Source of the DNA: a virus
Length of the DNA: 11,216 nucleotides
Direction: 5' to 3' (one strand)
UHGV virus genome: UHGV-0117334
Shown: positions 2,851 through 11,020 of the stretch, one piece after another
Numbering within the stretch: position 1 is the stretch's first letter
Layout of the letters: each line of letters opens with the position of its first letter
Translations under genes and position numbers: made by a program
The notes under the pieces: model-generated
Told to the model about the DNA's origin: nothing
The model's input: only the letters and a program-made list of their open reading frames with translations
Databases searched by the model: none

Positions 2851-3174
2851 ATGTTTAACGTGATAACCCACCCTGCAGCACTGGATGAACTGCTTGAACT
2901 ACCAGATGATTTGCGAGGTCGCATGACCAGATTAATTGAGCGACTGGAGAAGGAAGGCAACAAACTGAAGATGCCCCATAGCCGTGTAATAGGTGGAGGG
3001 CTTTTTGAACTACGAGTAGGGGATAAAAACATCGCAAGAACGCTGTACGCCTACGCGACTGGTAACGAAATTTATCTATTGCATGCTTTTGTCGAAACAA
3101 CGAAATATAACAAACAGAAAACACCGGTGAAGGCTATCGAAATCGCCAGAACTCGCCTGAAGGAGATGAACTGA
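2851..3174 (+). CDS. type II toxin, Gp49-like / HigB-like (RelE/ParE superfamily)
   Basis: 107-aa ORF with the family hallmark pattern ...RTLYAYATGNEIYLLHAFVETTKYNKQKTPVKAIEIARTRL. GGAGG SD 7 nt upstream of the ATG. Stop overlaps the start of the downstream HTH gene (TGATG). Confidence 0.8.
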   Translation: MFNVITHPAALDELLELPDDLRGRMTRLIERLEKEGNKLKMPHSRVIGGGLFELRVGDKNIARTLYAYATGNEIYLLHAFVETTKYNKQKTPVKAIEIARTRLKEMN

Positions 3175-3461
3175 TGAAAGCGAAAGGCATCCCGTTTAAC
3201 GAAGTAAAAGAAAAACTTCTCAACACTCCAGAAGCCATCAAAGGATATGAAGAGGCCGATAAAGAGCTGGAGATGGTCGAAATGTTATACGAAATGAGGG
3301 AAAGAGCAGGTTTAACGAAGTCAGCTCTGGCTGAACGAATGGGATTGCGCCCGTCAGCTATCAGCCGCCTGGAAAGCAATCCTTTAGGGGCAAGCATGAA
3401 AACTTTATCAAAATATGCCCAAGCATGCGGTGCAACGATTAATATTAATGCCGTCTATTGA
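3174..3461 (+). CDS. XRE-family HTH antitoxin (HigA-like) partner of the upstream toxin
   Basis: 95-aa ORF translationally coupled to the toxin. Helix-turn-helix segment LTKSALAERMGLRPSAISRLE. Toxin-first gene order is typical of HigBA-type modules. Confidence 0.8.
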   Translation: MKAKGIPFNEVKEKLLNTPEAIKGYEEADKELEMVEMLYEMRERAGLTKSALAERMGLRPSAISRLESNPLGASMKTLSKYAQACGATININAVY

Positions 3462-3478
3462 TTAGACCCTTTTCGCTA

Positions 3479-3498
3479 CCCCGTCCAGAAGGGCGGGG
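3479..3498. terminator. hairpin between convergent genes (possible bidirectional terminator)
   Basis: CCCCGTCC-AGAA-GGGCGGGG stem-loop (8 bp with one G-U pair) between the end of the antitoxin (+) and the end of the 72-aa ORF (-). Flanking U-tracts are weak. Confidence 0.35.
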
Positions 3499-3504
3499 TG
3501 TGTA

Positions 3505-3723
3505 TCAATGATGCAAACACTCAACAGCAATAACTTGTTGGCAATTCTGAGCAATCTCCCGCGACATACTAACAAGTCGTGAAATCTCGCCAAGATGCAA
3601 GCTGGCTTCTGGAGAAGCCAGAGCAACGCTAACCAGATCCAAAACGGCGTCGATGTCTTTTAGGTTTGATCCGAGTTCTTCAAGAGTTGATACAGGTGCT
3701 TCAGTCATTGAATCTAATACCAT
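3505..3723 (-). CDS. hypothetical small acidic protein (72 aa); candidate SOS-controlled antirepressor
   Basis: ORF lies immediately downstream (minus strand) of a near-consensus LexA box and an operator-like sequence. No clear SD before the ATG, so the translation start is uncertain. Function inferred from context only. Confidence 0.4.
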   Translation of the reverse strand: MVLDSMTEAPVSTLEELGSNLKDIDAVLDLVSVALASPEASLHLGEISRLVSMSREIAQNCQQVIAVECLHH

Positions 3724-3747
3724 TTAATTAAAAAAGGTTATTTGATA

Positions 3748-3763
3748 CTGTATAAAATTACAG
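3748..3763. promoter_or_regulatory. LexA (SOS) box CTGT-N8-ACAG
   Basis: tACTGTATAAAATTACAGgg matches the E. coli LexA consensus TACTGTATATATATACAGTA at 16 of 20 positions, with an AT-rich 8-bp spacer. Sits 25-40 bp upstream of the minus-strand 72-aa ORF. Confidence 0.6.
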
Positions 3764-3773
3764 GGTAAAACTC

Positions 3774-3791
3774 AAATTTTATAGCCAACTT
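3774..3791. promoter_or_regulatory. operator-like sequence related to the repressor/cro operators
   Basis: AAATTTTATAGCCA is identical over 14 nt (16 of 18 over the extended site) to 7601-7618 in the repressor/cro intergenic operator region. Confidence 0.4.
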
Positions 3792-3964
3792 TCAATGGAT
3801 TAACTGGTTAAATATCTTTGTAGTCCGATACTTATGTTCCCTTCCTACGCCTCGCCCAACCACTTTCAAAAGCCCATCACCACCATCAGAAAAGCTCTTT
3901 TCGCTTCGTTTTCTCATCATTTCAAAAACTATGCCTTTTTGTTTATTTATCATTCCGTGACCAG

Positions 3965-4291
3965 TCACACTTTGAGCACAAGTTTCAGCCTCGTAGTTGT
4001 AAGGTGACATGAGCCTTCACCATCAAAAATACATTCTGAAACAGGCATTTTCTGACCACATCGCGGGCAAGTAGTAGATAGCTGCTTCTGCAGCTCCTTA
4101 TAGTTTTTCCTGATCAGCAGACCGATGACTTCATTCTCTGAATATGGAACTCGTCCCGGTCTACGCAATACACAAATTTCCCCCAACATACGTAGCTCGT
4201 CAGGTTCCAGAATCCAGTCCCGTCTTGATGTGCCTTCCTTCTTCAACCGTTCCCTGCGTCTCCTTTGCCGTTCTGCAGCTGTCAGCGCCAT
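3965..4291 (-). CDS. hypothetical protein with C-terminal Zn-ribbon (CPRC...C..C) and Arg/Lys-rich N-terminus
   Basis: 108-aa ORF with strong GGAGG SD 4 nt upstream of the ATG. Motif CPRCGQKMPVSECIFDGEGSCH. Last gene of the leftward early operon. Confidence 0.6.
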   Translation of the reverse strand: MALTAAERQRRRRERLKKEGTSRRDWILEPDELRMLGEICVLRRPGRVPYSENEVIGLLIRKNYKELQKQLSTTCPRCGQKMPVSECIFDGEGSCHLTTTRLKLVLKV

Positions 4292-4310
4292 AAATCCTCC
4301 TGAAAATTAC

Positions 4311-4865
4311 TTAACCCAATGCAGGAAGTGAAACAGAAAACTGAATATGACCATCCGGAGTTACCGGAGAGTTGCCAGCCTCATACGCGACCCTTATCCA
4401 GTGCATAAACATTTCAGTACTTACACATCCACAATCAACATCAATTTTGTCATGCTGCTGTTCCAGCCATTGCTCAAAAGTTAACTTGTAAGTTTGGCTT
4501 ACAGGTTTGGCTTCCAGTTCTGCTACGCGCTGTTTTGCAGCATCCAGTTCAATCGACAATTTTTCCAACTGCTCTTTATGCTTCTTGTATTCCTGATATG
4601 CGTGCCAGGACTGACCTTTGCGCACACTATCAGTAATATCAGTAATCTGTTCTGGTGTTAGCGTGGTCAGTGGCTGTGCTGGGAAAATCAGCACTTTCCC
4701 GGAATCCCAATCAAAACCAGCGTGAATTGACTGAACCTCAACTGAGGGTGTTGAACCAATGCTGCCAGGCGAATGAATAACGATTGTTACATCCATATCG
4801 CAACGCTGGCTGTGTTTGTTGGACAAGATACGATTCACCAACTCAGAAAATTTGGAAAATTTCAT
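4311..4865 (-). CDS. hypothetical protein (184 aa)
   Basis: ORF whose start overlaps the stop of the upstream gene (ATGA). Central coiled-coil-like segment (KEQLEKLSIELDAAKQRVAELEAK). No recognisable catalytic motif. Confidence 0.65.
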   Translation of the reverse strand: MKFSKFSELVNRILSNKHSQRCDMDVTIVIHSPGSIGSTPSVEVQSIHAGFDWDSGKVLIFPAQPLTTLTPEQITDITDSVRKGQSWHAYQEYKKHKEQLEKLSIELDAAKQRVAELEAKPVSQTYKLTFEQWLEQQHDKIDVDCGCVSTEMFMHWIRVAYEAGNSPVTPDGHIQFSVSLPALG

Positions 4866-5152
4866 GCTGATTCCCCTTTCTCTGCTCTCTCCTGTCGGAA
4901 CATCACTATCATCAGGTCGCCTTTTGTCGCTATCTTGGCTGTTGTGCCTGGCTCAATGCGGCTAAGTTCAAATGCGTCATAGAACGCCTCTAACACTTTC
5001 TGGCGTCTTTCCTGTTTGCGGTGCTTTCCCCACTGCTTTAGAAAAACAGAGGCCGCCCACTTCCCCGCACTGAACATGATGTAAAACCAACCGAGAAGTG
5101 CCAGACCGATATTTATGGCCGTATCGATCGTTATCGTGGTGTCGATATTCAC
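4862..5152 (-). CDS. hypothetical small membrane protein (96 aa)
   Basis: Start overlaps the upstream stop. One predicted N-terminal TM helix (INIGLALLGWFYIMFSAG) followed by a basic stretch. Confidence 0.55.
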   Translation of the reverse strand: MNIDTTITIDTAINIGLALLGWFYIMFSAGKWAASVFLKQWGKHRKQERRQKVLEAFYDAFELSRIEPGTTAKIATKGDLMIVMFRQERAEKGESA

Positions 5153-5571
5153 TACGCCACCTCCTGAAAATTTCCCTGATAAAAAGCCAGCACACGCTGC
5201 ATAACTTCACTTTTCCGGCAATCGTGACAAATCATGTTCAAGCGCCTGTCGTAACGACGTATTTCTCCGTCAGGTAATGACCAGATAAGGTCTGGATCAA
5301 CCACTACCGATGTCTTCGGCTTTACTCTTGATAGTTTTTTACGGGCGTTTTGCCAGTCCTTGCGTGCTTGTGCAGACAGAAATATCCCGGAGCCAGAGAT
5401 ATACAAATCACCACTGGCAGCAAGCTCTCTTGATAAACGACTAACAGCACACCGGCTAATACCAGTTTCATCCGCAAGTTGCCTAACCGTTCCTCGTCCA
5501 TTCAGGCGCACGAGTTCCACAATTTGTTTATTCAGTTCTTCCCTCTGTTCTGGTGTAAAAGCCTTTGCCAT
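5152..5571 (-). CDS. putative DNA-binding protein with (winged) helix-turn-helix
   Basis: 139-aa ORF; HTH-like segment GTVRQLADETGISRCAVSRLSREL. Start overlaps the exonuclease stop (TAATG), indicating translational coupling. Confidence 0.65.
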   Translation of the reverse strand: MAKAFTPEQREELNKQIVELVRLNGRGTVRQLADETGISRCAVSRLSRELAASGDLYISGSGIFLSAQARKDWQNARKKLSRVKPKTSVVVDPDLIWSLPDGEIRRYDRRLNMICHDCRKSEVMQRVLAFYQGNFQEVA

Positions 5572-6170
5572 TACGATTCTCCTTGCCCTTTTACAAGACG
5601 GGAGAAAATTGCTGATACATATTTATCCTGATGAATAGCATCAGCCAGGGCATTGTGTCGTTCGCCATCAAATGGCATATCTTTTTTAGGATTAAAACCA
5701 ATAAACTGACCAAGGTTAACGATTGTTCGAACATCCTGATCATTAAAATATTCCCACGGACAGGCTAAGCCAACGCGCTCATAAGCACCGCGTAAAATTA
5801 CATTATCGAACGTTGCTCCATTTCCCCATACTTTCAATTTTTTTAAATTACATGCATGGCAAGTAATAAAGTGTGATAATTCAAAAAGTGCATCCTTAAT
5901 ATCAAGGGCATCATTAGTACAAATTGCTGCTCTGGCTTCCTTGCTCTGTTTCAACCACCATAAAATGGTATCACCATCGGCGACACCACCATTCAACATC
6001 GAGCTTCTGAGATTCACTGGTACATAAAAAGTAGGACCTAATTCCTCACTTTCTGGAGAAAAAAACACTGCCCCGATAGAAACAATTGGAGCACATGTGT
6101 TAGTACCCATTGTTTCAAGGTCAATCATTACATCAGACCGTTTCCTGTCGTAAATAATCTGATTAGTCAC
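5571..6170 (-). CDS. DEDDh-family 3'-5' exonuclease (DnaQ-like fold)
   Basis: 199-aa ORF with Exo I motif MIDLETMG, an Exo II-like Asp (GATFDN) and Exo III motif H-x4-D (ERHNALADAIH). GTG start with GAGGAG SD 8 nt upstream. Confidence 0.8.
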   Translation of the reverse strand: MTNQIIYDRKRSDVMIDLETMGTNTCAPIVSIGAVFFSPESEELGPTFYVPVNLRSSMLNGGVADGDTILWWLKQSKEARAAICTNDALDIKDALFELSHFITCHACNLKKLKVWGNGATFDNVILRGAYERVGLACPWEYFNDQDVRTIVNLGQFIGFNPKKDMPFDGERHNALADAIHQDKYVSAIFSRLVKGQGES

Positions 6171-6193
6171 GAATAATTCTCCTCAACGTTTAT

Positions 6194-6397
6194 CTATACC
6201 CAAATTTTCTGTTGATATGTTCTGGATGGTTTTGGCGTTCTTTCTGATTCAGGTAAATGAACATAAACGCAATATCCATCACCTAAAAAATCAGAACGAA
6301 CAACCAGAACTTTCTTACCACGCCGCCGATAAGTATCTGAAAGACGCTCTGCTTCATCATGCGTCATCGGCCCCTGCTTAAATGGCGTTATTTTCAT
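6194..6397 (-). CDS. hypothetical small protein (67 aa from ATG 6397; track ORF extends to 6421 via a GTG inside the palindrome)
   Basis: ORF in the leftward operon. The 18-bp palindrome sits 6-23 nt upstream of the ATG, over the ribosome-binding region. Confidence 0.5.
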   Translation of the reverse strand: MKITPFKQGPMTHDEAERLSDTYRRRGKKVLVVRSDFLGDGYCVYVHLPESERTPKPSRTYQQKIWV

Positions 6398-6698
6398 TTT
6401 CTTGTGCGACCACGGTCGCACCCTCTCTGATTTCCAAGTAACGCTTAATCCAAAGATTTTCTATATGCTTATTACCTGGCTGATTTGATAAATACCAATC
6501 GGCAATTACAGACTGCTTATTACTATCTGGTCGTGTCCTGTAACCACAAGTTGGACACCAGATAACATATTCATTTCTTACCCCCGAATACCTTAATTCT
6601 GGCTTCGACGGTTTCCTGAACATAACTTGTTTACAAAGGCAGAATGGCACTTCCTGCCCGATGGCGTTTGATGATTTCACTGCGCTTCTCCGCCGCAT
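6378..6698 (-). CDS. hypothetical Zn-ribbon protein (CPTCGYR motif); start uncertain
   Basis: 106-aa ORF from the track. Its 5' 68 nt overlap the upstream 236-aa gene, and an internal ATG at 6623 would give 81 aa. The C-terminal residues ATVVAQ are encoded by the palindrome. Confidence 0.5.
   Translation of the reverse strand: MRRRSAVKSSNAIGQEVPFCLCKQVMFRKPSKPELRYSGVRNEYVIWCPTCGYRTRPDSNKQSVIADWYLSNQPGNKHIENLWIKRYLEIREGATVVAQENENNAI
6403..6420. repeat. 18-bp palindrome, copy 2 of 3 (reverse orientation); centromere-like site candidate
   Basis: TGTGCGACCACGGTCGCA on the + strand is the exact reverse complement of the 18-mer at 2202-2219 and 8848-8865. Overlaps the 3' end of the 106-aa ORF and the translation initiation region of the next gene. 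Confidence 0.6.
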
Positions 6699-7341
6699 TT
6701 AATAATGCAGTTCGATTTAAGCTCAGACATCGCGACTTAATTAAAAGCCAGCGTTCTTTATAATCTTGTCTCCAGCTATCAATAGATATATTCAGTAGAA
6801 AACTCAGATGCCTGTCCTGTTCTCTCTCATCAACTGCCTCAGCACACGTAAGTTCTGATTTAACCTGCTGTGCCGCGTAATAAATCAATTTCCGCATGGC
6901 TTTTTTCGTGGAGGCCTTCATTTTTTTAAAGCCGCCCCCCGAATGAGCAACCAGAAAATCAAGCCATAACCACTGACAAACAATCACATCATTGTTGTAA
7001 TCAGGCTTGCATCCGTAGCAATAATAAAGCCAGGCTGATTCCTCGTTATTCAACTGACCAATAGCCCTGCGCCAGCTGGCGCTCTGAAAATCAATATCAG
7101 TGAGCAACATTGATGATTGTTTAAATGTTTTCCCCTGGTGGAATCTAACCGGCTCAGCAGGAACGGACACTTCGTATGAGTTATCATCACCTACACTGAT
7201 TGACCGGACTGGTTTATTGTTAAAGCGTCCTGATCTGCCTAGACGCATCTGCTCAAGCTGGACCTCTAGGATGCCACGCTGGCGATAATGAATATCAGCC
7301 AATGCCGTGGATACGCAGCTGCGTATATACTCAAGCTCCAC
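6631..7341 (-). CDS. hypothetical protein (236 aa); Q-like late antiterminator candidate by position
   Basis: GTG start with AAGGAG SD about 10 nt upstream, immediately after cro. Several Cys residues (CYGC...C). Antiterminator role is inferred only from the cB-cro-Q gene order recalled for N15-like phages, not from a recognised motif. Confidence 0.6.
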   Translation of the reverse strand: MELEYIRSCVSTALADIHYRQRGILEVQLEQMRLGRSGRFNNKPVRSISVGDDNSYEVSVPAEPVRFHQGKTFKQSSMLLTDIDFQSASWRRAIGQLNNEESAWLYYCYGCKPDYNNDVIVCQWLWLDFLVAHSGGGFKKMKASTKKAMRKLIYYAAQQVKSELTCAEAVDEREQDRHLSFLLNISIDSWRQDYKERWLLIKSRCLSLNRTALLNAAEKRSEIIKRHRAGSAILPL

Positions 7342-7579
7342 GCTTACGGCTCTCCTTAATCGACTGCTTTACCCGCCGAGTTGTAAAGTCACTCTTCAGC
7401 TTGTAAGCAGTACGAACTTCAATATCACTTTGCCGCAATGAAGGAATCTCTCCAGCGGTTAACCATTGGTAAACAGCACCGGGTGTTACACCTACCCCAG
7501 CCGCTGCTTTTTCTACACTGCCAAAGTGGCGAATAAGTTCTTCTGGTTTCATGCGGTTATTATAAGCAATAAATCGCAT
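7331..7579 (-). CDS. cro: Cro-like HTH regulator
   Basis: 82-aa ORF divergent from the repressor. HTH segment FGSVEKAAAGVGVTPGAVYQWL is typical of Cro/YdaS-type proteins. An alternative start at ATG 7552 (MKPEEL...) lies just downstream of a TATAAT-like hexamer. Confidence 0.75.
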   Translation of the reverse strand: MRFIAYNNRMKPEELIRHFGSVEKAAAGVGVTPGAVYQWLTAGEIPSLRQSDIEVRTAYKLKSDFTTRRVKQSIKESRKRGA

Positions 7580-7580
7580 T

Positions 7581-7620
7581 TAAAGCCAGCTATAATAAAT
7601 AAATTTTATAGCCAGCTATA
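7581..7620. promoter_or_regulatory. operator region: two 14-bp palindromes TA(A/T)AGC-CA-GCTATA between divergent repressor and cro genes
   Basis: TAAAGCCAGCTATA (7581-7594) and TATAGCCAGCTATA (7607-7620) are spaced 26 bp centre to centre in the 64-bp intergenic region; the second ends 23 bp before the repressor ATG. Confidence 0.6.
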
Positions 7621-7643
7621 AGAAGATCATTTATGATTAAGCT

Positions 7644-8240
7644 ATGAAAACACGAGGCGAACGACTGAAAGCACGCCGTTTAGAGATGAAGCTGACGTTG
7701 CGAGAAGTTGCTGAGGCTGTCGATATCTCTATTGCAGGCGTCCAAAACTTAGAACGTGGCGACGTAATGCCGTCACTGGAGATAGGTATTGCCCTGGCTA
7801 AGTGCTTACGCAAGCCAGTGCATTGGGTGCTATATGGGACAGAATATGACCCTGATCGCATTCCTGTTATTGGCACAACTGAAAGTGGGCCGGATGAAGA
7901 GTGGAAGCCGGGACAGGTTCCAAATACTGAGCGATTCCTGCCATTCATCAGCCAGCGCAATACTGTGTATGCGTTAACTATCAGCAATCTTACGCAGGGA
8001 AACTATCAGCCAGGCGATTTTCTCCTGGTCGATTCTGCGCTGGAACTGGTCCCCGGCGAGGATGTTCTGGTTCGTGATACTGCAGGAAATATCACTATCC
8101 AGCGCCTGGCCCGTTTTGATGATGAAAATTACTATCTGGATGGAACAAACTCACAACGCGCCATCTTCAGGAAAAGCGATCTTGAATTTGTTCACCAAAT
8201 AGTCGGAACGATCAAATCATTCATGGTTGAGGGTAGATGA
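7644..8240 (+). CDS. phage repressor, CI/CB-type (N-terminal XRE HTH, C-terminal beta-rich domain)
   Basis: 198-aa ORF. HTH segment LTLREVAEAVDISIAGVQNLERG. The C-terminal domain resembles the oligomerisation / peptidase-like domain of CI/LexA-type repressors, but I could not pick out a clear Ser-Lys catalytic dyad by eye. No SD before the ATG, so it may be translated from a leaderless or short-leader mRNA. Confidence 0.85.
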   Translation: MKTRGERLKARRLEMKLTLREVAEAVDISIAGVQNLERGDVMPSLEIGIALAKCLRKPVHWVLYGTEYDPDRIPVIGTTESGPDEEWKPGQVPNTERFLPFISQRNTVYALTISNLTQGNYQPGDFLLVDSALELVPGEDVLVRDTAGNITIQRLARFDDENYYLDGTNSQRAIFRKSDLEFVHQIVGTIKSFMVEGR

Positions 8241-8485: not shown

Positions 8486-11020
8486 ATGACATTAAACGAT
8501 TTCTATGCGGATCGCTTTGGCAGCGATCCGTTCTCGCTAATTGAAGCAGCACGGGATGAAATAACCGAGCTGGCACAGATGGCTGGTATCAACTGGCCTG
8601 CCTGTTCCGACAACATCCAACTCAACCCTCGCGGGGGGGGTGAGCGTTACTCTTCATACAATAAAACATCTCCAGAAGCTCTCGAAAAGAGCCTGAAAGG
8701 ACGCGTAGAAATTTACTCCAGGCTGGAACACAGCAAAGGGATTGATTACCCGTTCATTAACTTCGTCCATAAAGGCAGCGATGCTGGCTCATGGAGCGGT
8801 TTCTCCTTCCTGTTTTCTGAATATCGCCGTGAGCAACAACGGAATAATGCGACCGTGGTCGCACAACCGGAAGAAGAACGGGCAAGAATAGAACGTCAGG
8901 CCGAAGCACGTCGTCGCCGTGAAGAACAAAAACGAATTAATGACCTGAAAAACAACCAAATGGACCATGAACGTTTGCTGGGATGGCTGGCATTCCACAG
9001 TGCTTGGGAACATGCTCCTGCAGAAGACGGCTCATGGCCATATGCGATTAAAAAAGGTATTCGTGACGTTTTTAATTCGTGTGATGTGCGTCGCGTGACC
9101 AGTCACGACAGCGCAAAATGGAGCAGGGGGCCAACCACGTATATGGCTATCCCTCTGGCTCACCTGGACGGTCGTTACGATGGTCGTATTGTTGGTTGGC
9201 AGAGAATCGACAAACAAGGTGGAAAATACCAGACCAGCGCCGTAACCAGCGGCGATTTCGTCGGTGCCTGCTTTGTTATCGGTGAGCTGAAAGGGGCGCA
9301 AAACATCGCTGTTACAGAAGGTTTTGCTACTGGTGCATCCATCTGGCTTGCCACGAAAAAAGATAAACGCTTTGACGCTGTGGTTGTCGCTGTATCCGCT
9401 AACAACATGGTTCATGTTGTGGAACAACTGGTAAACATGTACCCGGCGGCAAAAATCACCTGCGCACTGGATAATGACCGGAAATCAGCTACAGAAGGAA
9501 AAGGGAATACCGGCCTGCGGACTGGCTATGAAATCTTATCGAAATTCAACGATGTCCGCTGCGTCTATCCAACTTTTGAAGACGATCCGCAAATGGAGTG
9601 CAGTGACTTCAACGACCTGCACAAACTACGTGGACTTCGTGAAACAGCACGTCAACTGTTTGCAACTGCAAACCGCCTGAAAACTGGCACTGATTTGCTA
9701 TCTCTGACGCTCAACCGCCTGAAGACAATTAAGCGGGATAACCGTCGTACTTTTGCCAAAGAGCTGCTGAGAGCGGTGGATATTGGCATGCTAACCTGTC
9801 CGGTTCCTAACAGTCCGTCAGACTTATTTAACATGTTCTGCATCGTTCTGCGTGAAATGGGGCTGGAAAATATCTATCGCGCTACGGTAAAAGACCACAT
9901 TGCCCGTCGCCTGAATAAAAAGTGCCGTATTGCCCAGGCTCCGCGCTCATTCAGCGAACGCATAACTGATCCCAATAAACGTCCTCAACATATCACCTAT
10001 AAGCGTTTTGAAACTTCGGTAATGACCGATGACGTCCTGAAGTACGTGCAATCACTACAGGGGATAGTCATCGTCCGTGCTGGTATGGGTTCCGGCAAAT
10101 CTACTGGATTGTTACGACCGTTAATGCATAGCTCAGAACGTGGTATCTCTGTTGCTCACCGTGTCTCCCTTATTGGTGGCCTGTGGGAAATGATGACAGA
10201 AGGAAAAGGTGTAAAAGCCGATATCCTGCACTATCAGGACCCTGGCTATCAGGAAATGGCTCCATACGCCAGTAAACTGACCATCTGCATAAACTCGATT
10301 GTTAAAAACTGCTGGCAACCGTTGATGCGCCAGCACGACTATTTTGGCTTTGACGAGGCCACACAAGGGCTACGTGCCGTTCTTTCCGGTCGGGCTATGG
10401 AAAACCCGGTGGCTGTATTCCATACGCTAATTGACGCGCTGGCCAGAACGGAACAACACCCAATCATGGTGGATGCTGATGCGAACGATCTGCTGGTTGA
10501 CCTGGCTGAACTGGCTATGAAACGCCGTGAAGAACTAGGTTTACCGGCATGGCTGCAGATCCACGTAATTGAATTACCTGTTGATGTTCGCAACCGCGAA
10601 ACAGGTGAGCCAATCCGGGTTTTTTATACAGAAAAAGATCGCATTATGACCGAGGTGGTGAAAGCTGTATCGGATGGCGAAAAAATCATGTTGGCCACCG
10701 ACAGCTCCACCTTTGCAGAAGATGTGACAGCCACCCTGAGAATGCATTTTCCTGGTAAGAAATTTCTGTGTGTAAACCAGAAAAGTAAACAGGATGAAGA
10801 AGTCGATGCCTTTACCAACCAGCCAAAAGTAATGGTGATGAAATACGATGGACTGATCTACAGTCCGTCAATTTCCTCCGGGGTGTCATTTGAGAAAAAA
10901 CATTTTGACCGTCATTTCGGCATGTTCTGCGGTGAAGTTGTGCCCAGCGACGCAGTGCAAATGCTACGCCGCGACCGTACAGCAAAAGAATTTATTATCG
11001 GCTTTGAAAGATACGGATAA
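8486..11020 (+). CDS. repA: replication protein: Toprim-type primase fused to a P-loop helicase (RepA-like primase-helicase)
   Basis: 844-aa ORF. Toprim motifs (IAVTEGFATGASI with catalytic Glu; CALDNDRK DxD motif). Walker A (GMGSGKST) and Walker B-like (YFGFDEATQG) in the C-terminal half. Same strand as and downstream of the repressor, as recalled for repA in N15-like phage-plasmids. Gene symbol is by architecture only. Confidence 0.85.
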   Translation: MTLNDFYADRFGSDPFSLIEAARDEITELAQMAGINWPACSDNIQLNPRGGGERYSSYNKTSPEALEKSLKGRVEIYSRLEHSKGIDYPFINFVHKGSDAGSWSGFSFLFSEYRREQQRNNATVVAQPEEERARIERQAEARRRREEQKRINDLKNNQMDHERLLGWLAFHSAWEHAPAEDGSWPYAIKKGIRDVFNSCDVRRVTSHDSAKWSRGPTTYMAIPLAHLDGRYDGRIVGWQRIDKQGGKYQTSAVTSGDFVGACFVIGELKGAQNIAVTEGFATGASIWLATKKDKRFDAVVVAVSANNMVHVVEQLVNMYPAAKITCALDNDRKSATEGKGNTGLRTGYEILSKFNDVRCVYPTFEDDPQMECSDFNDLHKLRGLRETARQLFATANRLKTGTDLLSLTLNRLKTIKRDNRRTFAKELLRAVDIGMLTCPVPNSPSDLFNMFCIVLREMGLENIYRATVKDHIARRLNKKCRIAQAPRSFSERITDPNKRPQHITYKRFETSVMTDDVLKYVQSLQGIVIVRAGMGSGKSTGLLRPLMHSSERGISVAHRVSLIGGLWEMMTEGKGVKADILHYQDPGYQEMAPYASKLTICINSIVKNCWQPLMRQHDYFGFDEATQGLRAVLSGRAMENPVAVFHTLIDALARTEQHPIMVDADANDLLVDLAELAMKRREELGLPAWLQIHVIELPVDVRNRETGEPIRVFYTEKDRIMTEVVKAVSDGEKIMLATDSSTFAEDVTATLRMHFPGKKFLCVNQKSKQDEEVDAFTNQPKVMVMKYDGLIYSPSISSGVSFEKKHFDRHFGMFCGEVVPSDAVQMLRRDRTAKEFIIGFERYG
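8848..8865. repeat. 18-bp palindrome, copy 3 of 3, inside the primase-helicase coding sequence
   Basis: TGCGACCGTGGTCGCACA identical to 2202-2219. Encodes the residues ATVVAQ of the replication protein. Confidence 0.6.

Follow-up and report, generated by a model that had tools for sequence, protein, structure and literature searches.

We analysed an 11,216-nt stretch of the virus genome UHGV-0117334 (hereafter the window), which is the right arm of an Escherichia coli N15-like (Ravinvirus) linear plasmid-prophage, with the focus on a block of seven minus-strand genes at 3965-6698 that lies between the antiterminator gene Q and an SOS-controlled locus. The block is probably an accessory-gene patchwork of the N15 type, running from Q and the centromere site IR2 to the SOS-controlled gene antC and made up of independently exchangeable genes, and not one machine. 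It would consist of three parts: a backbone head with a Lar-like gene, whose 5' end lies on Q and whose 3' end carries IR2, the gene of a small protein that we call p75, and a DEDDh exonuclease gene; a recombination hot spot filled with lambdoid nin/ea-type genes, namely those of a DUF977 protein, a DUF4752 protein and a truncated coiled-coil protein; and the backbone gene gp46, then gp47. A preliminary description of this DNA had proposed that the exonuclease could form, with a DNA-binding and a membrane partner, an anti-defence or superinfection-exclusion module.

The evidence for a patchwork comes mainly from the neighbours that these genes have in other elements. A viral contig collection was anchored on the exonuclease, DUF977 and DUF4752, and the cassette proteins were mapped by tblastn with single queries in the closest 80 loci per anchor. 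With the exonuclease as the anchor, 17 loci of the same lineage all carry Q, Lar-like, p75, exonuclease and DUF977 at 95-100%, and four distant loci carry none of the partners. The exonuclease-DUF977-DUF4752 trio is invariant in 15 of these 17 close relatives, the other two (loci L017 and L020) being without DUF4752. For the DUF977 anchor, an adjacent exonuclease was found in 0 of about 70 lambdoid loci, in which DUF977 is 71-76% identical, and 17 of these loci have a 51-56% identical exonuclease on the other strand, 5.5 kb or more away. Among 64 non-N15 loci reached with the DUF4752 anchor, about 49 have the coiled-coil protein, 6 have DUF977 and 1 has the exonuclease. In annotated chromosomal lambdoid prophages the DUF977 and DUF4752 genes come directly after the replication genes, like lambda ren; Ea22-like, DUF4752 and DUF551 genes are also found after gene P in annotated chromosomes, and stand-alone exonuclease homologues (67-70% identical) are located just upstream of xis/int, by DUF551/Ea22 in E. 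coli and by DndB in Salmonella. The GC content at third codon positions (GC3) goes from 0.29 in the exonuclease gene to 0.41 in that of DUF977 and 0.57 in that of DUF4752, which are adjacent. The trio has come together by accident in a single lineage and does not represent a conserved system, and the proposed unit of exonuclease, DNA-binding and membrane proteins shows no conserved co-occurrence outside that lineage.

The stretch between DUF977 and gp46 is a hot spot of recombination and gene exchange. It occurs on near-identical flanks in 14 versions of 860-2379 bp, the shortest of which is that of the window. The versions carry DUF4752 and differing coiled-coil/DUF551 chimeras with up to about five extra open reading frames (ORFs), and in L017 and L020 the interval holds another gene set with a true Ead/Ea22 protein, DUF4752 being missing. 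They have in common a 3' end and linker motifs such as NSPVTPDG. In addition, separate pieces of the block match P1-like and Shiga toxin (Stx) phages at 91-95%. As for the preliminary description, the packing of the genes behind cro-Q agrees with the early-operon position that it suggested, and the 14 interval versions bear out a hotspot, one of gene turnover that covers only part of the block.

Near-identical copies of the block are already public and annotated, and the region is of a known type, in which known parts have been newly combined. In a megablast search with 3400-7700, 16 complete E. coli genomes matched the full stretch with an identity of 95-99%, on plasmids of about 46 kb, as did the phages PhiR46_1 and YDC107_1, which are classified as Ravinvirus. 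The cB-cro-Q part has 73-75% DNA identity to N15, phiKO2 and related Klebsiella phages, and the gene order is collinear with N15, phiKO2 and KpLi5, so that the positional equivalent of the block is N15 genes 41-46 plus two ORFs that are unannotated in the N15 reference record.

The head of the block recurs over a wider range. The Lar-like gene, p75 and a DEDDh exonuclease are found after Q in N15, phiKO2, KpLi5 and PY54, and gp46 is found in N15, phiKO2 and KpLi5. The family of the exonuclease depends on the phage: it is RNase_T (PF00929) in N15, phiKO2 and KpLi5, and Rv2179c-like (PF16473) in the window and PY54, and pairwise comparison of the two types gave no similarity. Between PY54 and the window, the identities are 49% for the Lar-like protein, 45% for p75 and 60% for the exonuclease, above those of Q, cI and cro (31-33%); the three genes are separated in PY54 by five other ORFs. 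The preliminary description had named ordinary families without conserved co-occurrence as the finding contrary to its idea, and this is largely what we found for the exonuclease/DUF977/DUF4752 core and not fully for the head; because part of the block co-occurs across real divergence, we regard that idea as partly supported. A separate observation on N15 concerns gp41 (locus L003, 6161-7075), in which a DEDDh exonuclease of the RNase_T family is joined to a genuine Lar domain (PF14354, 47.5 bits; cut-off 28.6); its RefSeq name, 'DNA polymerase exonuclease subunit', gives no sign of this fusion.

From Q to the LexA box at 3748-3763 there are seven ORFs in the same orientation, on the minus strand, and every one has a Shine-Dalgarno site of its own. 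The Q and Lar-like frames overlap out of frame by 50 nt (from GTG 6680, with GGAG before it) to 68 nt (from ATG 6698), and the Lar-like and p75 frames by 20 nt (ATG 6397) to 44 nt. A gap of 23 nt with GAGGAG stands between p75 and the exonuclease; the exonuclease/DUF977 and DUF977/DUF4752 junctions are the 1-nt stop/start overlaps TAATG and TAGTG, the junction of DUF4752 with the next gene, that of a 184-aa protein, is ATGA, and a 19-nt gap with AGGAGG leads to gp46. All seven ORFs have homologues in other phages and are therefore genes and not chance ORFs. The series of seven consecutive, tightly coupled genes reported beforehand was confirmed in the sequence by these ORFs and junctions. As to its extent, the seven ORFs hold, on the minus strand, and an eighth co-oriented ORF that had been left out (3792-4010, gp47-like, overlapping gp46 by 46 nt) belongs to the same series. 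Contrary to what had been stated, the exonuclease is not alone in being recognisable: six of the seven proteins have a match among the existing families of Pfam or PHROG.

The exonuclease gene (5571-6170, minus strand) encodes a DEDDh 3'-5' exonuclease of the Rv2179c-like/DexA-like kind and can start at GTG 6170 (199 aa) or ATG 6128 (185 aa). Its match to PF16473 (E=3.5e-67) scores 225.9 bits against a cut-off of 27 and covers 176 of 177 profile positions, and the catalytic pentad D17, E19, D122, H172 and D177 is invariant in 40 homologues of 56-81% identity. The AlphaFold2 (AF2) model shows the RNase H-like DnaQ fold, with a predicted local distance difference test score (pLDDT) of 87.1 and a predicted template modelling score (pTM) of 0.85. 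When this model was compared with solved structures by Foldseek, T4 DexA (8kel) came out best, with a template modelling (TM) score of 0.75 and E=7e-12, and then RNase T (TM 0.71); phmmer also connects the protein with DexA (E=1.4e-7). Its homologues form 2410 clusters in Enterobacterales, mostly of about 190 aa, and it is 60% identical to its orthologue, PY54 gene 51. Family, pentad and fold together identify the 199-aa protein as a true member of the Rv2179c-like DEDDh exonucleases. Because the catalytic residues and the fold are intact, it is expected to be active as a stand-alone, Mg-dependent enzyme, which would trim the 3' ends of single-stranded DNA (ssDNA), RNA or oligonucleotides.

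A Rac/Sakai-type lambdoid prophage (L104) has, from 13908 onward, a long gene labelled '3'-5' exonuclease' (about 820 aa by its coordinates), which lies near dicB in the early-left operon, and PHROG profiles of 823, 530 and 436 aa have the Rv2179c-like domain at or towards the C-terminal end. The opposite-strand exonuclease matches (51-56%) in the lambdoid DUF977 loci (L046-L103) may belong to such long proteins.

The gene of the Lar-like, putative zinc-ribbon protein (6378-6698, minus strand) matches phrog_6795, 'Lar-like restriction alleviation protein', at E=1.5e-45, and the GTG at 6680 (100 aa, behind GGAG) is more likely its start than the ATG at 6698 (106 aa). Both comparisons with the Lar family stay below threshold, at 21.1 bits for PF14354 (cut-off 28.6) and 19 bits for TIGR03655 (cut-off 39.6), and the NCBIfam scan gave a sub-threshold Lar match only. 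In hhalign, the CxC...CxxC-x2-RT...W pattern was aligned with that of Rac RalR at a probability of 12%, and no relation was detectable to the Lar domain of N15 gp41 (probability 1.4%). C20-x-C22 and C48-x2-C51 are conserved in all homologues that retain the N-terminal segment, the first knuckle being CxC and not CxxC. The family is small, with 10 clusters among 5.8 billion proteins and close relatives only; beyond the window it was seen in N15 (79% identity), phiKO2 (72%), KpLi5 and PY54 (49%), with the Q overlap in N15, phiKO2 and PY54. The protein possibly alleviates type I restriction.

The overlap with Q deserves a description of its own. In all four telomere-phage lineages the Lar-like ORF starts within Q and shares the last 50-95 nt of that gene in a different frame, at 6631-6698 in the window, 5654-5748 in N15 (L003), 7240-7331 in phiKO2 (L107) and 2944-3032 in PY54 (L198). 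The part overprinted on Q encodes the first Cys knuckle (CxC) of the Lar-like protein, which is kept in PY54 although Q is only 31% identical there.

The next gene (p75; 6194-6421, minus strand, 75 aa) matches phrog_1212, of unknown function, at E=1.8e-25, aligned from residue 9. Because the PHROG profile begins there, ATG 6397 (67 aa) is probably the start. The protein is 53% identical to the unannotated 'orf QD1' of N15, 51-56% to its counterparts in phiKO2 and KpLi5, and 45% to that of PY54; it also has relatives in lambdoid and Stx-associated prophages, the lambdoid ones about 44% identical and 2-6 kb downstream of DUF977.

An IR2-type SopB-binding palindrome, GTGCGACCACGGTCGCAC, is placed at 6404-6421 by the annotation of the same sequence in phiKO2 and by its match to the N15 IR2 oligonucleotide. 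Within the Lar-like ORF it occupies the last codons, which encode the conserved EGATVVAQ, and it also lies at the 5' edge of the ORF of p75; the preliminary description had overlooked this site within the cassette. An IR3-type centromere lies at 2201-2218, just upstream of the late promoter, and a third IR copy at 8847-8864 in repA. The IR consensus is a 16-18 bp palindrome, GTGCGACC-NN-GGTCGCAC, and the three window sites stand at N15/phiKO2 positions. phiKO2 annotates the same palindrome sequences as 'putative plasmid partitioning site', and the N15 IR1-4 oligonucleotides printed in PMC7205306 match the window sites. Judged by their sequence, the window palindromes are N15-type SopB-binding centromere sites. 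Since IR2 codes for two ORFs that are absent from the N15 reference annotation, published IR2 mutations might have altered the Lar-like and p75 proteins too.

Regarding the hot spot, the DUF977 protein (5152-5571, minus strand, 139 aa) matches PF06163 at E=1e-29 over positions 1-134 of 134, with 103.7 bits against a cut-off of 22.1, and phrog_142, 'Ren-like exclusion protein', at E=2.7e-42. Its N-terminus has a winged helix-turn-helix (HTH) signal, with weak HTH family matches at residues 10-55. Compared with lambda Ren, just the C-terminal 20 residues align, at 50% identity (pairwise E=8e-6). Lambda Ren is an anti-exclusion protein, which neutralises Rex exclusion, and by analogy the DUF977 protein possibly counters exclusion in the same way. 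Sequence searches of solved structures with the DUF977 protein and gp46 returned weak HTH or chance matches only, and in the literature on DUF977, DUF4752 and phage Rv2179c-like proteins nothing relevant was found.

The DUF4752 protein (4862-5152, minus strand, 96 aa) matches PF15944 at E=1.9e-38, with 130.8 bits against a cut-off of 27. It had been called a membrane protein, a call that is weakened by its having one marginal hydrophobic segment, an N-terminal helix whose maximum 19-residue Kyte-Doolittle mean is 1.58 at residues 12-30. No defence-system model in PADLOC-DB was matched by the block beyond two weak generic hits, to DEDDh (E=0.005) and to the HTH of CasR (E=0.003).

The 184-aa product of the next gene (4311-4865, minus strand) is a modular coiled-coil protein, with phrog_6026 at residues 1-113 and phrog_368 and phrog_924 further on. 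Its GenBank labels are 'Ea22' or 'PmgU'. We do not follow the label 'Ea22', since the Pfam scan gave no hit to PF13935 (Ead/Ea22) at E<=0.1 and BLASTP found no similarity to lambda Ea22; PF13935 is matched by an alternative gene in the same slot of relatives. Compared with YDC107_1, pAH01-1 and others, the protein has an in-frame 105-bp (35-codon) C-terminal deletion, at 4311-4345 in the window (comparison of loci L001 and L002). The deleted C-terminal module, AFGGDKYFIDGVFQPLRYERDCE.AVVAAGGVV.W, is kept elsewhere by every variant as the end of the last gene before gp46.

The last of the seven genes (3965-4291, minus strand) encodes a 108-aa homologue of N15 gp46, which matches phrog_536, 'transcriptional regulator', at E=5.4e-32. 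It is 77-79% identical to N15 gp46 (77% over 108 aa), phiKO2 gp45 and the KpLi5 homologue, which occupy the same position before gp47/antC. It has a basic N-terminal helix and a C-terminal C-x2-C-x8-C-x7-C pattern with invariant C75, C78, C87 and C95. It is a small, presumably zinc-binding protein and may be regulatory. The AF2 model, made from an 18-sequence alignment, had a mean pLDDT of 60, below 50 at the C-terminus, and was too poor for a fold search. The homologue search found close relatives only, and epsilon15-like phages and prophages carry relatives of 35-40% identity, such as 6147-6485 in prophage L105 and 39334-39573 in Salmonella phage epsilon15. In prophage L105 the gp46-family gene is two genes upstream of the small terminase gene, a position that hints at a role in late-gene control.

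The upstream border of the block is the Q gene (6631-7341, minus strand; PF06323 E=2e-84; phrog_304), whose product is 67% identical to N15 gp40. Downstream, the gp47-like ORF (3792-4010, minus strand) encodes 72 aa, matches phrog_13995 at E=2.1e-13 and is 36% identical to N15 gene 47. Beyond it the border is formed by the LexA box CTGTATAAAATTACAG (3748-3763), a perfect CTGT-N8-ACAG upstream of the antC-like gene (3505-3723), which is assigned by a match to phrog_6301, with a weak match to an anti-repressor PHROG. The antC-like protein is 57% identical to an unannotated N15 stretch between genes 47 and 48 (L003, 9605-9808), and the N15 reference record appears to be without an antC coding sequence (CDS). 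Directly upstream of the LexA box, within 3748-3790, a 17-nt sequence, AAATTTTATAGCCAACT, shares 94% identity with part of the operator-promoter repeat of cB/cro (7601-7617), which suggests that the antC promoter includes a CB half-site or a cro-like promoter element.

In the window as a whole, the genes follow the order of the N15 right arm: the plus strand carries the cB repressor gene (7644-8240) and repA (8486 onward), and the minus-strand order is cro, Q, the seven genes and the gp47-like ORF. Then follow the LexA box, the antC-like gene, a RelE/HigA pair on the plus strand, gp50/51, and the late promoter and terminator, past which lie Dam methylase, holin and lysozyme genes. The pair at 2851-3461 (plus strand) consists of genes for a RelE/ParE-type toxin and a HigA-like HTH antitoxin, is convergent with the cassette, and has a position conserved in N15 (genes 49/48), phiKO2 and KpLi5.

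As regards transcription, the promoter and terminator scan gave counts at or below shuffle expectation and nothing convincing inside the block, and the search of the entire window against Rfam at E<=0.1 gave a single sub-threshold chance hit outside the region. A late-promoter-like site (2181-2153, minus strand) and an intrinsic terminator (2116-2096, minus strand) have equivalents that N15 and phiKO2 annotate upstream of the methylase gene 52. This late-promoter analogue is about 1.8 kb beyond the cassette and about 4.5 kb downstream of the Q gene, and the site at 2096-2181 is presumed to be the target of Q. A Q-dependent late operon starting right after Q in the lambda style was considered and rejected, the promoter/terminator analogue being at 2096-2181 as in the N15 and phiKO2 annotation. 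Since the genes are packed directly downstream of cro-Q, no convincing internal terminator or promoter is present and the late promoter analogue lies beyond the cassette, it is reasonable to place the block among the early or delayed-early genes.

In N15, LexA cleavage is reported to let AntC inactivate CB. On induction here, LexA cleavage would likewise let AntC inactivate CB, so that the promoter Pcro would fire. Transcription of the CB-repressed cro-Q operon would then most likely continue from Pcro across cro and Q and on through the block, because no credible terminator intervenes. For N15, Ravin, Rech and Lane reportedly described in 2008 a distance of about 6 kb between Q and the late promoter p52, with late expression aided by IR2, IR3 and SopAB. 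Seen in that light, the cassette would simply be the DNA between IR2 and IR3.

Some of these results weigh against a patchwork of independent genes. Distant partners may be missed in the tblastn counts; the TAATG, TAGTG and ATGA overlaps would permit translational coupling from the exonuclease through DUF977 and DUF4752 to the coiled-coil protein in this lineage; and both the recurrence of the Lar-like, p75 and exonuclease genes in four telomere-phage lineages and the Lar domain fused to the N15 exonuclease leave room for a functional unit at the head. In such a unit, which would be specific to telomere phages, the Lar-like protein and p75 would work together with a DEDDh exonuclease from one or the other family in anti-restriction or DNA-end processing, for example to protect or mature the linear hairpin-ended genome as it comes in or replicates, with the zinc ribbon directing, regulating or partnering the exonuclease, and SopB at the embedded IR2 could in addition tie head expression to the partition and late-gene switch. 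In its favour, the three genes recur after Q in N15, phiKO2, KpLi5 and PY54, they are better conserved in PY54 than Q, cI and cro, the exonuclease slot is retained despite the family swap, and the gp41 exonuclease is fused to a bona fide Lar domain. Nevertheless we consider it unlikely. Shared backbone ancestry accounts for the co-occurrence without a functional link, and five other ORFs come between the three genes in PY54. The Lar-like ORF is not detectably related to the gp41 Lar domain and only weakly to RalR, exonuclease homologues of 60-70% are common in unrelated prophages without a Lar-like or p75 neighbour, and part of the constraint that conserves the Lar-like 3' end comes from the IR2 within it. 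Common descent of the backbone, together with frequent horizontal spread of the exonuclease, is the simpler explanation of the co-occurrence at the head.

Another possibility is that the exonuclease is a prophage defence gene of the TONDO/ISG20 type, a moron and not a gene of the lytic cycle, which trims the 3' ends of ssRNA phages and so protects the lysogen. A 2026 preprint describes prophage and plasmid DEDDh exonucleases that defend E. coli against MS2 and Qbeta (PMC13344964), and the active site of the window exonuclease is intact. TONDOs, however, were picked as ISG20 homologues of the cd06127 lineage, usually with an auxiliary domain (PMC13344964), whereas the window protein belongs to PF16473 and is closest to T4 DexA, and its gene is behind a repressed early promoter and has no promoter of its own; we regard this explanation as very unlikely. 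The least probable reading is that of the exonuclease, DUF977 and DUF4752 as a nuclease/DNA-binding/membrane module in anti-defence or superinfection exclusion. The genes are indeed joined by 1-nt overlaps (TAATG, TAGTG), with ATGA to the next gene, they are invariant in 15 of 17 close relatives, and DUF977 is in the PHROG that holds lambda Ren. But the arrangement is limited to one lineage of at least 95% identity, in which L017 and L020 are without DUF4752; the adjacency is gone in every other context examined; the differing GC3 indicates separate origins; and the PADLOC matches are insubstantial and the membrane assignment of DUF4752 is marginal. We thus retain the patchwork of exchangeable genes, whose products would probably each play a part of their own, be it in taking over the host, in DNA-end metabolism, in anti-restriction or in anti-exclusion.

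Understood in this way, the block is to the N15 lineage what the nin/ea accessory regions are to lambda. It brings with it a correction of annotation, for the Lar-like and p75 ORFs are absent from the N15 and phiKO2 reference records, the labels 'Ea22' and 'exodeoxyribonuclease VIII' are wrong, and IR2 is within coding sequence. Accessory functions could be sought in the DUF977-gp46 hot spot, and a small testable question arises, namely why a Lar-like gene and a DEDDh exonuclease are retained directly behind Q in every telomere phage examined.

Among known systems, the closest are N15, phiKO2, KpLi5 and PY54, with which the window has in common an order that starts with cB, cro, Q, the Q-overlapping Lar-like ORF, IR2, p75 and a DEDDh exonuclease, and which in the N15 type continues with variable genes, gp46, gp47, the LexA-controlled antC, RelE/HigA, gp50/51, IR3 and the late promoter. 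A difference from N15 is in the middle genes gp42-45, which are replaced in the window by the lambdoid DUF977, DUF4752 and coiled-coil protein; the distance from Q to the late promoter is about 4.5 kb in the window and, reportedly, about 6 kb in N15. Like the ren/nin and ea regions of lambda, the block is a string of small, mostly dispensable, mosaic early-operon genes with overlapping stop/start codons, its DUF977 protein has a C-terminus resembling that of Ren and falls in the same PHROG, and relatives of its exonuclease occur at the int-proximal end of the lambdoid early-left operon. Unlike in lambda, the genes are downstream of Q and not between P and Q, and the 184-aa protein is unlike lambda Ea22 and outside Pfam Ead/Ea22.

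At the level of single proteins, the window exonuclease has PF16473, a complete DEDDh pentad and its fold in common with T4 DexA, E. coli RNase T and Mycobacterium tuberculosis Rv2179c, although its identity to T4 DexA is only 22%. It resembles the TONDO/ISG20-like proteins in that these too are DEDDh exonucleases of prophages and plasmids (PMC13344964), and it is set apart from them by description, TONDOs being, as far as can be judged, another DEDDh subfamily in which an auxiliary domain is usual. The Lar/RalR protein of the Rac prophage, a restriction alleviation protein that has been reported as a DNase toxin (PMC4041452), is a small Cys-rich protein of the zinc-ribbon type, as the Lar-like protein probably is too, and the PHROG label 'Lar-like' points to it. 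The window protein differs from it by a conserved C-terminal extension of 40 residues, which is absent from Lar, and by belonging to a family confined to telomere phages.

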